Below the pieces are notes generated by a model that saw nothing but the letters and a program-made list of their open reading frames with translations, searched no databases and was not told the DNA's origin. Shown here one piece after another: positions 25,780 through 52,163 of a stretch of 64,000 nt of DNA; the first letter of the stretch is position 1, and the number at the start of each line of letters is the position of its first letter. Source of the DNA: Escherichia coli (GTDB lineage: Bacteria > Pseudomonadota > Gammaproteobacteria > Enterobacterales > Enterobacteriaceae); NCBI RefSeq assembly GCF_030013595.1, contig NZ_CP122768.1; one strand, written 5' to 3'. The translations under genes and the position numbers were made by a program.

Positions 25780-26691
25780 ATGGATGACTGTGGTGCGGTT
25801 TTGCATAATATTGAAACTAAATGGCTTTATGATTTTCTGACCCTGGAAAAATGCCGCAATTTTTCCCAGGCGGCAGTTAGTCGCAACGTCTCGCAACCGG
25901 CATTCAGCCGCCGCATCCGTGCACTGGAACAGGCGATTGGCGTTGAATTGTTTAACCGCCAGGTGACGCCGCTGCAACTCTCGGAACAAGGGAAAATCTT
26001 TCATTCGCAGATCCGCCATCTGTTGCAACAGTTAGAAAGCAACCTGGCAGAGCTGCGTGGCGGCAGCGATTACGCGCAACGTAAAATCAAGATAGCCGCT
26101 GCACACTCTCTTTCCCTCGGTCTGTTACCGTCCATTATCAGCCAGATGCCGCCGCTCTTTACCTAGGCGATTGAAGCCATTGATGTTGATGAAGCGGTCG
26201 ATAAACTGCGTGAAGGGCAAAGTGACTGTATTTTTTCCTTTCACGACGAAGATTTGCTGGAAGCGCCGTTTGACCACATTCGCTTATTTGAATCTCAATT
26301 GTTCCCCGTCTGCGCCAGTGACGAACACGGAGAAGCACTGTTTACCCTCGCGCAGCCACACTTTCCGTTACTGAATTACAGCCGCAACTCCTACATGGGG
26401 CGATTGATTAATCGCACCCTGACGCGCCACAGCGAGTTAAGTTTCAGCACCTTTTTTGTCTCTTCGATGAGCGAGCTATTAAAGCAGGTTGCCCTCGACG
26501 GCTGTGGGATTGCCTGGCTGCCGGAATACGCCATCCAACAAGAAATTCGCAGCGGGCAGCTCGTTGTACTGAATCGGGAAGAACTGGTGATCCCGATTCA
26601 GGCCTACGCATACAGGATGAACACCCGTATGAATCCCGTTGCCGAACGCTTCTGGCGTGAACTGCGCGAACTGGAGATTGTGCTTAGCTGA
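25780..26691 (+). pseudogene. hypT: LysR-type regulator HypT (YjiE) interrupted by an in-frame TAG
   Basis: Two track ORFs (25780..26166 and 26254..26691) lie in the same frame, separated only by TAG at 26164..26166; I checked the codons on either side by hand and found no other stop. N-terminal HTH and C-terminal LysR substrate domain are otherwise intact. Confidence 0.8.
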
Positions 26692-46473: not shown

Positions 46474-47454
46474 ATGAACGCAATAATATCGCCCGATTAT
46501 TACTATGTTCTTACCGTTGCTGGTCAGTCTAATGCCATGGCGTATGGCGAAGGACTGCCATTACCGGACGGGGAAGATGCGCTTCATCCCAGAATTAAAC
46601 AATTAGCGAGATTTGCGCATACGCATCCCGGAGGCCCGTCATGTCACTTTAACGACATTATTCCACTGACTCACTGCCCACACGATGTTCAGGATATGCA
46701 GGGTTATCACCATCCTCTGGCAACGAATCATCAAACACAGTACGGCACCGTTGGCCAGGCACTGCATATAGCACGGAAATTACTGCCCTTCATTCCTGAT
46801 AATGCAGGGATTCTCATCGTTCCGTGTTGCCGTGGCGGATCGGCTTTTACCGCGGGCAGCGAAGGGACATATTCAGAACGGCACGGAGCCAGCCATGATG
46901 CTTGTCGTTGGGGAACGGATACTCCGCTATACCAGGATTTAGTCAGCAGAACGCGAGTCGCACTGGCAAAAAATCCGCATAACAAATTCCTCGGCGTATG
47001 CTGGATGCAAGGCGAATTTGACTTAATGACCAGTGACTACGCGTCACACCCTCAATACTTTAATCATATGGTTGAAGCCTTTCGTAGGGATCTAAAACAA
47101 TACCATTCTCAGCTTAATAATATTACTGACGCACCGTGGTTTTGCGGCGATACCACCTGGTACTGGAAAGAAAATTTCCCTCATGCGTATGAAGCGATTT
47201 ATGGCAATTATCAAAATAATGTTTTAGCCAATATTATTTTCGTCGACTTCCAGCAACAAGGTGAAAGAGGACTGACGAACGCGCCTGATGAAGATCCGGA
47301 CGATTTAAGCACGGGATATTACGGTTCAGCGTACCGGTCACCGGAGAACTGGACGACGGCACTGCGAAGCAGTCATTTCAGCGCGGCAGCCCGTCGGGGG
47401 ATTATTTCTGACAGGTTTGTAGAAGCAATTTTGCGGTTTTGGCGCGAAAGGTGA
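46474..47454 (+). CDS. nanS: 9-O-acetyl-N-acetylneuraminate esterase NanS
   Basis: 326-aa ORF; synteny in the nanCMS operon. Confidence 0.85.
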   Translation: MNAIISPDYYYVLTVAGQSNAMAYGEGLPLPDGEDALHPRIKQLARFAHTHPGGPSCHFNDIIPLTHCPHDVQDMQGYHHPLATNHQTQYGTVGQALHIARKLLPFIPDNAGILIVPCCRGGSAFTAGSEGTYSERHGASHDACRWGTDTPLYQDLVSRTRVALAKNPHNKFLGVCWMQGEFDLMTSDYASHPQYFNHMVEAFRRDLKQYHSQLNNITDAPWFCGDTTWYWKENFPHAYEAIYGNYQNNVLANIIFVDFQQQGERGLTNAPDEDPDDLSTGYYGSAYRSPENWTTALRSSHFSAAARRGIISDRFVEAILRFWRER

Positions 47455-47608
47455 GCGTTCATTAATTTGATTTATTTGCATCCATTAGCGCTTTTAACTG
47501 CTCCGGCGAAAACGGTGGTTTGCGTCGGTGCAACATCGCATGGCAATTGGGGTACACAGGCAGCAAAAAAACAAATGAGATCAAGGTAATATATCTTCAC
47601 TTGCAGGC

Positions 47609-48538
47609 TTGAACAGCAGAAAATTTGCGAGCATGATCGCAATTATTTCACTGCCAGGGATATCAATGGCTTCCAGTAAATCGCTACAGCAGGCAATTGC
47701 CAATATAAAAATCTGGCACAAGGGTGAACAGCGCGCGCCGCATAAGCCATTGTTATTGCTATACGTATTAGCGGGATACCTGAATGGACATCCGCGCCTT
47801 TTCGATTATGGATCGGAAATCTACGAACCTCTGCACAGTTTACTGGAACGTTTTGGGCCACAGCGTTCACAGTACCGACCTGATATGCCGTTCTGGCGAT
47901 TACAAGGCGACGGATTCTGGCAATTACACAATGCCGAGCTTTGCTCAACAGCAGGGAGCAGCCGACAACCACCAGTGAAGGAACTGATTGAATACCACGT
48001 TGCAGGCGGTTTCGATGAACAGCACTACGCCCTGGTAACTGGCAATAAAAAACTCATCAATACTCTGGCGCAACAGATACTCGAAGCGCACTTCACCGAG
48101 AGTATTCAGGAAGAAATTGCTGACGAGCTGGGTTTTGATCTCCAGCAAATCCGTAAACAGCGCGACCCGTTATTTCGCAAAAATGTATTACGCGCTTATA
48201 AATACCAGTGCGCGATATGTGGCTTTAATATGCGCCACGACGACGCCACCGTCGCGCTTGAAGCGGCGCATATAAAATGGAAACAGCACGGCGGTCCTTG
48301 TGAAATTCCTAATGGCCTAGCGCTTTGCGCAATTCACCATAAAGCCTTTGATAAAGGATCGATTGGCCTGGACGAAAATATGCGGGTACTGGTATCAGAT
48401 GCGGTAAACGGCGGAGGGATCGTTGAGAGATTATTCTGGGATTTTGACGGGAAAACTATTGCGTTGCCGCAGGTGCGTAAAAATTACCCTTATGAGGTGT
48501 TTGTTGAGTGGCATCGGAAAGAGGTTTTTAGGGGGTGA
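47609..48538 (+). CDS. HNH-endonuclease domain protein with uncharacterised N-terminal domain (possible type IV restriction-like enzyme)
   Basis: C-terminal HNH signature CAICGF...EAAHIKWKQHGGPCEIPNGLALCAIHHKAFD; N-terminal ~200 residues unassigned. Confidence 0.65.
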   Translation: MNSRKFASMIAIISLPGISMASSKSLQQAIANIKIWHKGEQRAPHKPLLLLYVLAGYLNGHPRLFDYGSEIYEPLHSLLERFGPQRSQYRPDMPFWRLQGDGFWQLHNAELCSTAGSSRQPPVKELIEYHVAGGFDEQHYALVTGNKKLINTLAQQILEAHFTESIQEEIADELGFDLQQIRKQRDPLFRKNVLRAYKYQCAICGFNMRHDDATVALEAAHIKWKQHGGPCEIPNGLALCAIHHKAFDKGSIGLDENMRVLVSDAVNGGGIVERLFWDFDGKTIALPQVRKNYPYEVFVEWHRKEVFRG

Positions 48539-49094
48539 GGTTGATAACTATCGCAGTATGTTCAATATTGCTGACATAATCAGTGCAGGATCTTGCCGCT
48601 AGTTTACAACTCGCCTTCGATAGCGGCGCAAAACGAGTTCTGTTGCCGATATCCTGGGCTATGGATATTTCAACAGTTCCGGCAGAGTTGTTTACCAAGT
48701 TTCAGGTAAGTTTTTACTCATAACCGGTTGATGCGGTTTATAAGGCGCTGGATGTGAATTAACACATTCCTCAGTTTATTTACAAAAGGATTATTCCCAT
48801 TTGATATAATATAAGTGCCAATTTACTTTTTCAATGGAATATATCTCGGCTAAATAACAATAAAACTTATCGCTAATGGATTAAATAAACAATTTTCTAA
48901 TTTATTTCACCACCTTTGATATAGAAATTGATGGTGTTGTCGCTGCCATTGCTTATGGTGATGATAAAATCCACGTTTCTGGATCGGTGCGTAGAAAATC
49001 ATCACTACCTTGATATTTTGATGCGATATGATCATACCGTTCCGTAGTACCAATTTCAACTTCAGGCTAAACCCCAACATTAAAAAATTTAGAG

Positions 49095-49136
49095 TTATTC
49101 ACTGATTATATTATCATTAATATAATCAGTGAATAA
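49095..49136. repeat. Perfect 19-bp inverted repeat with 4-bp spacer
   Basis: TTATTCACTGATTATATTA-TCAT-TAATATAATCAGTGAATAA, checked base by base; lies 116 bp downstream of the 651-aa gene. Confidence 0.8.
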
Positions 49137-49251
49137 CATGGACTATATAATAAATTGCTCTAATCATTTCCCTTACGAATATATGGGCCAAAAGCCCAAG
49201 AATCATAATAAGGGTGATGGACTAATTTTTCATTAAATCGAACACTATAAG

Positions 49252-51207
49252 TTAATTTTTTATATTTTTACGTACAGCATTAATACTGGGCAAAGAGGAA
49301 AGATAATCTATAAACTTATCGATAGTGATTTCCCCTTCGCAACACTCAAACCCATCAATGATATTTTTCGCCATTTTTCCATTTTCATTTGTTTGATATA
49401 TCACTCCAGGTATTCGTTGAAAAAAACTAGATAATGCATATTTGTCCGCTACATATGTATCATCCACATGATATTTCCCACCGAGCATAGTTGTAGTAAC
49501 AATAAGCTTATACACACCTTTGGGTTGCCATGTTGATGGTAGTTCGAATTCTTTAATGATCACATCAAGATGATTAAGATAATGTTCAGAAATTCGATTT
49601 ATTTGTTGAAAATAAGAACGCATAAATTTATTATTATGATCATGTATTAATGAGCTATCTCCAACGATGTTACACACTTGCTGATAGTACTTACCATAAT
49701 ATATTGGTTGACCATTTGATTTTAGTTCTGTAAAAATCAAACAATCATCCAAGAGAATCACGCAATCGCACTGATAATTAGCATGAGCATCAATTGGAGA
49801 AGCTTTAATCCCCGCATCACGAACTTGTTTTATAAATTGTTGTTCATGAAATCGCCCTTTACTTGCTTGAGAAATTTTTTTGGAACCAAATAATGACATT
49901 AGAGAGCGAGTCACTGAGCTATTTGCTATTAATGCAGGCATTAAGAATAAACCGTCCATACAGGGAATAAATGGGCAATCATTAAGATCATGTGATTTTG
50001 AATTGAAGGTAAAATAATCTATCAGTTTTTTTGCTGCATCTGCTGCAATCCCCTTACGTTGAAAGAATGATAACCAACTCTCACGGCTTTTTATGATCAG
50101 CCAGCGCTCCAACTGTAGGGGTATAGGCTTTGTCGATGAAAATCTTTTGCTCATTTCTTCTTTAGATAACTCGACTAAACATTGATAAGCGTGCACCCAA
50201 TTAAATAATGATATATTCCCATATTCTTCATGAAGGTCATCAGGAGACATATTTTCTAACTCGCTTAGATGAAATGAGCTAAAAACGCCATCAGAATTTA
50301 AGTAAGATGGCATATGATCCTTTACCCAACTATTTAGATGAAAATGTTTGTTACTAAATTCATGAACTTCGCTATATAGATGTGACGCTCTCATCATTAG
50401 TCTATTTCTTGCAATCTCATAATCTCGGTATAAACAAAAACTATCAACCTCAAGAGAGTAAATGTTATTATCCAATTTTGTAAATACTGCACTACTTAGT
50501 CTGAAAAAATCTCTTACTCTGCTTAATGAGTCAAAAACATTCCACTCATTAAGGTACCCTCCCATTGAAAGCAAGGTTTGTTTATTCACACAAGAAGTTA
50601 GTTTCAATGGCCCATGAGTCCGTAAATAAGAAAATATTCTTCCGGTGTAATTGGCTACCTCATCAAATGCCCTATCGATAACTCGAAAATATTCGATATC
50701 AGGTTCAGCATGAATATTAATATTTTCAGAAACGATAAATAATGGAAAAATCCTCTTCATTTTTTTAGGATCATTGACCACAACCAAGGATGATAATGAT
50801 GATAAAAACATCTCACAAAACATGATGAGATTAAGTATTAATGCATGTGATTTTTTTGTATTTTTACGCCAAATACCAGCACATTTTGTAGCCGCAAAGA
50901 AAGAATTATTTATATCATGCATAATTTTACATTGACTCTCGAACTCAGAGATTAGTTCAATGTTATCAGGAAATGAGTTTCCTAGCTCATTAATACATTT
51001 TTTGAATGTATTGTTATACTCAACTTCAGTCTGAACTGAAAATCTATTATAATAGATGGAAGATATTCTTAGCACATCCAAGGCGATATCTATACTAATA
51101 TCATCTCTTTTTATGTACTCACAAAAAAAAGAACAAAACTGTTTCGGGTCGTTAGCAAGATTACTAATTCTAGTGGTATCATAAACTTTTTCCATTTTTC
51201 CATACAT
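49252..51207 (-). CDS. Uncharacterised low-GC 651-aa protein at the leuX islet
   Basis: Long ORF in strongly AT-rich DNA immediately 3' of tRNA-Leu (leuX); possible PD-(D/E)xK-like motif (CDCVILLDDCLIFTELK) near residue 480; otherwise no recognisable domain. Confidence 0.7.
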   Translation of the reverse strand: MYGKMEKVYDTTRISNLANDPKQFCSFFCEYIKRDDISIDIALDVLRISSIYYNRFSVQTEVEYNNTFKKCINELGNSFPDNIELISEFESQCKIMHDINNSFFAATKCAGIWRKNTKKSHALILNLIMFCEMFLSSLSSLVVVNDPKKMKRIFPLFIVSENINIHAEPDIEYFRVIDRAFDEVANYTGRIFSYLRTHGPLKLTSCVNKQTLLSMGGYLNEWNVFDSLSRVRDFFRLSSAVFTKLDNNIYSLEVDSFCLYRDYEIARNRLMMRASHLYSEVHEFSNKHFHLNSWVKDHMPSYLNSDGVFSSFHLSELENMSPDDLHEEYGNISLFNWVHAYQCLVELSKEEMSKRFSSTKPIPLQLERWLIIKSRESWLSFFQRKGIAADAAKKLIDYFTFNSKSHDLNDCPFIPCMDGLFLMPALIANSSVTRSLMSLFGSKKISQASKGRFHEQQFIKQVRDAGIKASPIDAHANYQCDCVILLDDCLIFTELKSNGQPIYYGKYYQQVCNIVGDSSLIHDHNNKFMRSYFQQINRISEHYLNHLDVIIKEFELPSTWQPKGVYKLIVTTTMLGGKYHVDDTYVADKYALSSFFQRIPGVIYQTNENGKMAKNIIDGFECCEGEITIDKFIDYLSSLPSINAVRKNIKN

Positions 51208-51883
51208 CCTATTGTCTAAATTACTATAAAACTAGCCACTTAACTAATAATTATAAATTTCATCTTTTACACCTTGCATTTTTATAACCAATGAAATCTA
51301 CAACAAGCAACTGATGGATAATCCGATATTGGTCGCATTTAATGGCATGGTAGCAAAGTTTTCATCACATACCTCCTTTGCACCAGAATAAACGCCAGAG
51401 ATCTGAAATTGCGAGTACACTACAGAAATTGTACTGCCGGTCCCATCAGCATAAAACCATAGTTACACAGGTAATCATCATTATTCGCCAAGATAATAAA
51501 TATTATTCGGTAGAATAGCGTTCTCAGGTGGTCAGTAAAATTGTCTTCAACAAGATGTCTGCGCATCTCGTCTGCTAGCCCTACATAACTGCTCTCGACC
51601 GAAACTATTTATTGAATGTTCACCAAGGTGGCGTGGAGACAAAATGACGTCTTTTGATATTAGCTACCTGAGCCACATGGTCAAAACGTTCAAGTAGCAT
51701 ACCGAAACCACCCTGCCCACGTAATGTGGACGATGCAGCTTCCAGCCAGAGCAAACTTGGGACCATCGACTACAAAATGAAGAATACTGAACTGCTTTTC
51801 TGGCAGGCCTATATACTGCACGGATATGGGTGATTTCAGACACAAAAAAAGCCGCTCTTGAGCGACTCGATTTGCATACGGTG

Positions 51884-51968
51884 TGGTGCCGAAGGCCGGA
51901 CTCGAACCGGCACGTATTTCTACGGTTGATTTTGAATCAACTGCGTCTACCGATTTCGCCACTTCGGC
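51884..51968 (-). tRNA. leuX: tRNA-Leu (anticodon CAA), leuX
   Basis: Reverse complement of 51884..51968 is GCCGAAGTGGCGAAATCGGTAGACGCAGTTGATTCAAAATCAACCGTAGAAATACGTGCCGGTTCGAGTCCGGCCTTCGGCACCA, with wild-type CAA anticodon and encoded CCA end. Confidence 0.95.
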
Positions 51969-52163
51969 ACTGAAGAGGTATGCGGAAAACGTTGTGGATT
52001 ATACCTGTCGCACGCCACCATGCAAGCGCCAGCTTGCTCGCACCTCGCTAAGTGCTGAAATTTTCAGCATTGCATACAGCGATGTGTAACCTTTGTCACA
52101 CTCCAGGCACCCCGCCCTGCCATGCTCTACACTTCCCAGACAACACCAGAGAAGGACCAAAAA

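Follow-up and report, generated by a model that had tools for sequence, protein, structure and literature searches.

The 4.4-kb segment that separates nanS from the tRNA gene leuX in a 64,000-nucleotide stretch of Escherichia coli DNA (contig NZ_CP122768.1, hereafter the window) in all probability represents the integration and defence hotspot at leuX, known as hotspot #37, in its unoccupied state, in which an intact attachment site is followed by its native flank, a slowly decaying mosaic of long-resident defence genes. This segment, referred to here as the islet, covers positions 47455–51883, that is, everything downstream of leuX as far as nanS, with ahr and yjgR lying beyond the other side of leuX; these limits had been given in an earlier note on the same DNA and were correct. 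The listing of open reading frames (ORFs) contains only two long ones in the islet, at 47609–48538 on the plus strand and at 49252–51207 on the minus strand (651 aa). The statement in the earlier note that the islet carries only two genes therefore stood as far as long ORFs are concerned, but three gene remnants had been overlooked, namely what is left of an HNH endonuclease gene, of brxL (its 3' end) and of a gene for a phospholipase D-like (PLD-like) protein (its 5' end).

Hotspot #37 was described by Hochhauser, Millman and Sorek (2023), who found BREX only at hotspots #1 and #37 and defined as 'empty' any site with three or fewer genes (PMC10121019). It is anchored by leuX, has the highest occupancy among the 41 defence hotspots of E. 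coli and contains defence genes in 97% of isolates (PMC12707154). The islet occupies the same position, between ahr-yjgR/leuX and nanS-fim, and the repertoire of the hotspot was also encountered in the relatives compared with the window (BREX-1, AbiE, McrBC, type I restriction-modification (RM) systems, P4-type integrases and CP4-like modules). With two coding genes plus remnants between the ahr/yjgR and nanCMS/fim flanks, the window falls within the published definition of an 'empty' site, yet a site that such a survey treats as empty here retains an intact restriction gene, the scars of a BREX system and an uncharacterised nuclease gene.

Evidence for this reading comes from the junctions of islands in other strains. 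In strain 536 the islet is 98.5% identical to that of the window from nanS up to window position 51907, which is 24 nt into leuX, and past this base the sequence continues into CP4-like/PAI II-type genes of the large leuX island (CbtA/YeeU, DUF932, antirestriction). Four IMG/VR contigs (L019–L022 among the compared loci) break homology at 51907, the same base as in 536. The last 24 nt of leuX (51884–51907, minus strand) are thereby delimited as the core of the attachment site, a partial copy of which adjoins the islet wherever an island has been inserted. Because the islands of 536 and of the IMG/VR contigs sit between leuX and the islet and end at this 24-nt partial leuX repeat, the islet is to be regarded as a flank of the attachment site and not as a substitute for an island, contrary to the claim of the earlier note that it stands in place of one. 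Strain HS carries an integrase, an HNH gene, IS3 and McrBC between leuX and the restriction endonuclease gene described below, and about 70% of the genomes carrying the islet appear to have an island between leuX and the islet. As judged from these alignments, the islet is the native flank of the attachment site, which P4-type integrase islands inserting between leuX and the flank in other strains would push away intact, and the window is the unoccupied state. The same attachment site is used by PAI II536 and by KpLE2, the element which, as the earlier note stated correctly, follows leuX and intB in K-12; the distal end of the 536 island is the partial leuX repeat directly abutting the islet. 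The window itself differs from both in having no integrase, repeat or island, and it thus represents the flank of their target site rather than a further member of the group.

The distribution of the islet among 5,426 complete E. coli genomes, the set to which all population counts refer, shows that it is made up of two parts with different histories. The leuX-proximal 676 bp were found in 357 genomes (~6%), including UTI89, O145:H28 strains and 536, and a probe across the junction of the islet and leuX was contiguous in only 104. This arrangement is therefore not the conserved state of the species, and the earlier view of it as accessory was borne out, though for the leuX-proximal 3.3 kb (48545–51831) only. 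Segment 47455–48780 was matched in 4,892 genomes (~90%), with at least 80% of its length covered in 1,301. Even K-12 retains, between nanS/ythB and yjhR, a frameshifted stump of the restriction endonuclease gene of some 206–248 nt that is 90% identical to the equivalent of window positions 47686–47933 (this stump is a feature of the PGAP annotation of NEB10-beta; NC_000913.3 has no feature there). Since the gene or its fragments flank nanS in all of these 4,892 genomes, K-12 included, the gene forms the conserved edge of the variable region towards nanS and is not island cargo, which refutes its earlier designation as cargo of the islet.

Searches for the hallmarks of an integrated island gave negative results throughout, in agreement with the earlier observation that neither an integrase nor a direct repeat of the leuX 3' end could be seen. 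Translated searches (tblastn) of positions 48500–52000 with K-12 IntB, the HS integrase and a P4-type integrase from Pectobacterium returned chance-level matches only, and six-frame translation of 51208–51883 yielded short broken frames with no integrase among them. The last 25 nt of leuX, with up to three mismatches allowed, matched nothing in the 64 kb other than leuX itself, and the last 16 nt gave only chance matches in the same 64 kb, far outside the islet; the repeat that the earlier note had proposed looking for in 47455–51883 was thus not found. Rfam searches of the islet at permissive thresholds recovered the tRNA and no other non-coding RNA. Among the usual attributes of tRNA-integrated islands, a tyrosine integrase beside the tRNA gene and a distal direct repeat of its 3' end are both missing, and strain variability combined with atypical composition is seen for 48545–51831 only (357 of the 5,426 genomes; guanine-plus-cytosine (GC) content 0.33–0.40) and not for the segment with the restriction endonuclease gene. 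In the GC profile of the window, values drop from ~0.48 to 0.29–0.37 across 48.6–51.4 kb. The long ORF at 49252–51207 is AT-rich, as had been noted, with a GC content of 0.327 and a GC content at third codon positions of 0.258, compared with third-position values of 0.58–0.61 in ahr and yjgR.

A different account of these data would be that all 4.4 kb derive from the collapse of a single integrase-borne island that lost its integrase and distal repeat in one large deletion, leaving the site occupied but disabled. We regard this as improbable. The low GC over 48.6–51.8 kb is compatible with such an origin, and the fragments of brxL and of the PLD-like gene prove at least one internal deletion; a related block in strain PapM-32-1, described below, moreover ends at an integrase pseudogene. 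Against it, leuX is complete and its 3' end is the exact point at which other islands integrate, the islet being their distal flank, so the site is functionally free; no remnant of an integrase is detectable by tblastn; and the end of the islet bearing the restriction endonuclease gene is near-universal in E. coli and thus lies outside any strain-specific island. The two alternatives offered by the earlier note, an empty site or a deletion remnant, consequently both hold in part, as the site is unoccupied and deletion remnants (brxL, PLD-like and the HNH stump) lie inside the flank.

The remnants themselves record how this flank has decayed. At 48550–48759 (plus strand) lies the 3' end of brxL, the gene for the Lon-like protease of BREX-1, corresponding to residues ~606–694 and 68.5% identical over 89 aa to the BrxL of PapM-32-1 (tblastn E 1.5e-27; PADLOC BrxL 7e-14; TIGR02653 1.7e-16). 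It is followed at 48860–49044 (plus strand) by the frameshifted 5' end of the PLD-like gene (the first ~62 codons), detected by tblastn with the PLD-like protein of PapM-32-1 as three segments that keep the collinear order and lie in different frames (E 1.3e-15). PapM-32-1 has the order nanS, HNH stump, restriction endonuclease gene, one hypothetical gene, a complete BREX-1 cassette (brxA–brxL) and the PLD-like gene, and the window remnants are 84.7% identical to its brxL–PLD region at the DNA level. The type 1 cassette brxA-brxB-brxC-pglX-pglZ-brxL is absent from the window apart from the ~89 codons of brxL. Because the brxL 3' end and the PLD-like 5' end remain where PapM-32-1 has the full cassette, they show, on the strength of this collinearity, that a BREX-1 cassette would once have been resident at the leuX–nanS locus and was later deleted, leaving behind 210 nt from the end of brxL and 185 nt from the start of the PLD-like gene.

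In PapM-32-1 (locus L009, 25171–26034) an integrase pseudogene was found in mid-array beside a 71-nt leuX-like sequence (25964–26034) that is 79% identical to window positions 51832–51906. This layout suggests that at least two leuX islands have accumulated in tandem in that strain, and it indicates that the BREX block itself probably arrived on an integrase element, because the BREX-PLD-AbiE block ends at the integrase pseudogene beside the leuX-like sequence.

Decay is also evident at the nanS end, where the last 35 codons (105 nt) of a 216-aa HNH endonuclease gene are left at 47462–47566 on the minus strand, as identified from PGAP annotation in relatives. The gene is intact in most carriers of the islet, for example MN06021 (WP_001037972.1), and is a partial pseudogene in HCP5S3_I2, HS and 536. 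The stump arose by a deletion of ~0.57 kb between 12-bp direct repeats, ACAGGCAGCAAA, of which one copy survives at 47556–47567 and both are present in locus L002 (4102–4113 and 4685–4696). This deletion allele is common to the window, HS, 536 and PapM-32-1.

Between the stump and the BREX scars lies the intact gene of a predicted phosphorothioate-dependent restriction endonuclease (PT-REase) of the SBD-HNH type, with a sulfur-binding domain (SBD) at the N-terminus and an HNH nuclease at the C-terminus (47666–48538, plus strand, 290 aa); its ORF opens at 47609 and its start is placed at the ATG at 47666, following the annotation of near-identical genomes. The protein scores 439.5 bits against NCBIfam NF045808 ('phosphorothioated DNA-binding restriction endonuclease'; cut-off 180), with residues 6–289 aligned to profile positions 2–284 of 284. 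Its C-terminal part matches Pfam HNH_2 (1.5e-9) and the HNH domain of TagI and displays the zinc-binding CxxC...CxxH arrangement as CAICG...EAAHI...PNGLALCAIHH, while residues 5–142 match the SBD of ScoMcrA (5zmo/5zmm/5zmn) at 1e-6 to 4e-6 by phmmer. In the sulfur pocket, APHKP aligns with ALHRP of ScoMcrA and MPFW with YPFW, so that equivalents of H116, R/K117 and P165 are present; K at position 117 together with a residue other than Tyr at 164 is usual in readers of the GAAC type (PMC6224610).

Members of this family have been characterised experimentally. Liu et al. (2018) synthesised an E. coli homolog from CP006584.1 (4690337–4691716), which bound DNA with Rp-phosphorothioate links and restricted a dnd cluster, whose transfer it blocked (PMC6224610). 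Full-length alignment of the tested homolog, from LY180 (NC_022364.1, E. coli W lineage), with the window PT-REase shows 77% identity. In LY180 this second PT-REase paralog (locus L025, 4842–5717) comes directly after the leuX integrase and precedes a type I RM system, at the end of the hotspot opposite to that of the nanS-adjacent copy; the window gene, which adjoins nanS, is thus a paralog or an allele of the LY180 gene, which adjoins the leuX integrase. EcoWI, of 33.4 kDa, cuts GpsAAC/GpsTTC at N7/N6 (PMC7461809). The window protein shares with EcoWI and the E. coli ScoMcrA-homolog family the two-domain architecture and the size, and it contains the H-K-P and P-F-W residues of the sulfur pocket as well as the CxxC/HNH/CxxH residues, the likeness to EcoWI itself being judged by family, architecture and mass (computed at 33.2 kDa vs 33.4 kDa). 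The assignment of the window HNH protein as a putative PT-dependent restriction endonuclease with a role in defence is thus well supported. By homology, its SBD would read Rp-phosphorothioate links in incoming DNA and a dimeric HNH domain would cut nearby; such PT-dependent cleavage, inferred by analogy with the tested homolog, would result in the restriction of DNA from dnd-positive donors. The earlier suggestion that both genes of the islet are candidates for defence functions accordingly gains substance for the HNH protein (439 bits to NF045808; 77% identity to a tested homolog), and is plausible only for the other.

As hotspot #37 has already been published as a defence locus, the PT-REase belongs to a characterised family and the BREX scars and gene stumps are ordinary decay, the islet is largely ordinary, and its sole gene lacking an assigned function is the AT-rich one next to leuX. 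In the window this gene, which encodes a NERD-like protein of the PD-(D/E)xK nuclease family, extends over 49252–51195 (minus strand) and 647 aa when counted from the annotated start (651 aa from the first ATG of the ORF). The full-length gene in relatives has 2,037 nt and encodes 678 aa (WP_000417002.1). The earlier description of it as an orphan ORF of 651 aa does not apply, since at least 227 clusters (representatives at 50% identity) match the 678-aa protein at E≤1e-3 and the window copy is truncated by a frameshift.

The 678-aa protein had no match, as a single sequence or as a profile, in Pfam, NCBIfam, PHROGs or the sequences of the PDB, and its only match in PADLOC was a marginal one to PDC-M29B (E 0.0011) at the catalytic motif. 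The Pfam NERD model (PF08378) fails to match the E. coli protein; of 70 family members it matches 4 when the limit is E≤1e-3 and 12 when it is E≤0.1; the Card1 and Mrr models match four and two of the 70, respectively, at E≤0.1. In the alignment of these 70 homologs D477, E490 and K492 of the catalytic E...D...ExK show no variation, conservation is at least 90% for E451, Q531 and R534, and all six are kept in the window allele; the conserved D477/E490/K492 set is, by its sequence pattern, the PD-(D/E)xK signature. An AlphaFold model (pLDDT 91.3, pTM 0.90) predicts an all-helical region (~1–355), a winged-helix-like domain (~362–440), a nuclease core (~445–600) and a small beta-rich C-terminal domain. 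Structure comparison of the model gave matches to nuclease folds, consistent with a restriction-endonuclease-like fold, and a Foldseek search of the PDB gave no significant full-length match. Full-length matches in AFDB50 (TM 0.7–0.97) were to proteins of 630–730 aa labelled 'NERD domain-containing protein' in UniProt, from hosts that include Salmonella, Xenorhabdus, Bacillus, Paenibacillus, Listeria, Streptococcus and Legionella. The family spans Firmicutes to Enterobacterales, and PADLOC 2.0, Pfam and NCBIfam have no entry for it.

No homolog of the 678-aa protein was found in phage genomes, and plasmids yielded five distant homologs only. A second database search, with a profile of 70 sequences, again gave the 91 close relatives and no others, and a search of viral contigs with the close alignment retrieved only E. 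coli fragments labelled viral. The neighbourhoods of the family are varied: in Izhakiella and Xenorhabdus the gene stands alone, surrounded by housekeeping genes, in Pectobacterium it lies beside a P4-type integrase, and at three distant loci its neighbours are, respectively, a type I RM system plus a Cap4 nuclease, Gabija plus an SLFN protein, and an integrase/KAP NTPase/Mrr element. No conserved partner gene was found among the neighbourhoods compared, and the short metagenomic contigs of three homologs gave no usable gene context. At three loci of distant or moderately distant homologs a small unrelated gene lies directly upstream, overlapping or abutting the NERD-family gene (176 aa on a Priestia plasmid, L024, 6480–7010; 325 aa with HTH_17 in L015, 6020–6997; 395 aa in L007, 6466–7653), and the E. 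coli gene, unlike these, has no such neighbour.

In the scheme proposed here, the low-GC gene would most likely encode a stand-alone defence nuclease. A fuller proposal, to which we give tentative credence only, is that the 678-aa protein may represent an undescribed family of stand-alone immune nucleases in which a helical N-terminal sensor and a winged helix control a NERD-type nuclease directed against phages, possibly RNA phages, or plasmids. The closest parallel is ZwsA, a stand-alone multidomain NERD protein of Pseudomonas aeruginosa that cleaves the genomes of single-stranded RNA phages and protects from RNA phages; it measures 82.4 kDa with its tag, has the architecture VHS-DUF647-NERD-S4 and uses the catalytic residues E535/D567/E580/K582 (bioRxiv 10.64898/2026.04.06.716636). 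Each is a single large protein in which a helical N-terminal region is followed by a NERD-type E...D...ExK core and a small C-terminal domain, each is encoded in a genomic island or defence hotspot, and the spacing from D to ExK is identical (D567/E580/K582 vs D477/E490/K492). ZwsA, compared here by its description only, is the larger of the two, the E. coli protein falls below the Pfam NERD threshold, and the catalytic numbering of ZwsA was found in none of 239 homologs of the E. coli protein. The relation is thus one of analogy and not of membership.

It is also conceivable, if unlikely in our view, that the NERD-family gene has no part in immunity, being either a decaying selfish or orphan gene or a housekeeping or repair nuclease that hitch-hikes in a recombination-prone region. 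Its solitary position in Izhakiella and Xenorhabdus would fit such a role, as would the want of a curated family or of a PADLOC 2.0 match above noise, the many partial or truncated entries in the protein collection and the existence of disrupted alleles (the window frameshift and an internal duplication in L022). Other features argue in the opposite direction: the catalytic residues are invariant in 70 diverse homologs and the full-length architecture is kept from Firmicutes to Proteobacteria, which argues for purifying selection on the nuclease; the patchy spread, the low GC, the location in the busiest defence hotspot of E. coli and the defence neighbours at three distant loci fit immunity genes; and a stand-alone NERD nuclease, ZwsA, protects Pseudomonas from RNA phages.

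As for the allele in the window, it is one T short of the T7 (A7) run at 49257–49262, and the resulting frameshift removes the last 32 residues of the protein (the full-length stop would be at 49160). The lost part comprises two confidently modelled beta-strands with four residues, Y650, P662, D665 and W667, that are invariant in the seven closest homologs, and the 647-aa protein may therefore be inactive. The two nearest genomes, HCP5S3_I2 and LCP30S3_I5 (99.9% identical, with five single-nucleotide differences and the indel over 4.4 kb), have an intact run. Homopolymer indels are the commonest error in long-read consensus sequences, and it is a serious possibility, only somewhat short of an even chance, that the truncation stems from a mistake in sequencing or assembly and that the strain has an intact gene: the single T is the sole length difference from these genomes and nothing in the sequence contradicts an error. 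Other disrupted alleles in public data make a genuine frameshift credible too. One of them, in IMGVR_UViG_2617271340_000008 (L022, 8001–10256), carries a 222-bp tandem duplication inside the gene, at the equivalent of window positions 50514–50736.

Several considerations weigh against the interpretation of the islet as a native flank composed of defence genes. The term 'native flank' should not be equated with the ancestral state of the species, as the low GC and the BREX remnant show that the flank was itself once acquired. The activities of both proteins, as encoded by the window alleles, are predictions from sequence. The frameshift of the NERD-family gene falls within a homopolymer run and could have arisen through faulty sequencing, given the intact run in the two nearest genomes. 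Three informative neighbourhoods of that gene (Izhakiella, Xenorhabdus and a Bacillus plasmid) contain no defence genes, and the E. coli protein lacks PADLOC, NCBIfam and Pfam matches other than the weak one to PDC-M29B (E 0.0011). The role of this gene in defence is accordingly plausible, an assessment inferred from its fold, its location and a few neighbourhoods.

Downstream of the full-length stop of the NERD-family gene, by 23 nt, lies a perfect palindrome (49094–49137, minus strand) with 20+20-nt arms and a 4-nt loop followed by a T-run, found by a repeat search (100% complementary) and a terminator-like scan. This 44-nt palindrome, which is likely the terminator of the gene, is unusually long and AT-rich, has one to three changes in relatives, and both of its arms score as sigma-70-like promoters. 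Apart from it, a search for terminal repeats that would mark the gene as a mobile cassette gave chance AT-rich matches only. Between the gene and the leuX terminator is an islet-specific non-coding leader (51196–51831, no strand assigned, GC 0.40) found in the same 357 genomes, in which six-frame translation, Rfam and tblastn revealed no ORF, no RNA family and no remnant of an integrase.

The leuX gene itself, tRNA-Leu(CAA), is at 51884–51968 on the minus strand and is the only tRNA in the window according to ARAGORN (Rfam tRNA, 59.4 bits); a terminator scan placed its rho-independent terminator hairpin at 51849–51868 (minus strand). The 52 nt past leuX that include this terminator are also kept in island-bearing strains such as K-12, and megablast coverage of K-12-like genomes starts at 51832. 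The terminator stem differs in sequence between the window (51832–51883) and K-12 (L011, 991–1045), while the flanking motifs are alike (GTATG.AAAT ... TTTTTTT.TG.CTGAAATC), and from this alignment it seems that attachment sites borne on islands bring a tRNA terminator variant of their own. At the opposite end, nanS is a complete ORF of 326 aa (46474–47454, plus strand), co-oriented with nanC and nanM. PGAP calls it a partial sialate O-acetylesterase pseudogene in HCP5S3_I2, MN06021, HS and 536, where its 3' end is overlapped by a 90-nt ythB-like ORF on the opposite strand; this discrepancy looks like an inconsistency of annotation.

With regard to the biology of this locus, sites scored as 'empty' in surveys of defence hotspots can still hold restriction genes and informative scars, and recognising the sequence that these strains have beside leuX as the flank of the target site helps to delimit correctly the pathogenicity and defence islands inserted at leuX. 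The NERD-family gene, with its confidently modelled and widely conserved nuclease architecture and its presence in well-studied uropathogenic strains, provides a lead for further work; if it is indeed an immune nuclease, a defence gene would have gone unrecognised at the 'empty' leuX hotspot in ~6% of E. coli, among them UTI89, 536 and O145:H28 strains.

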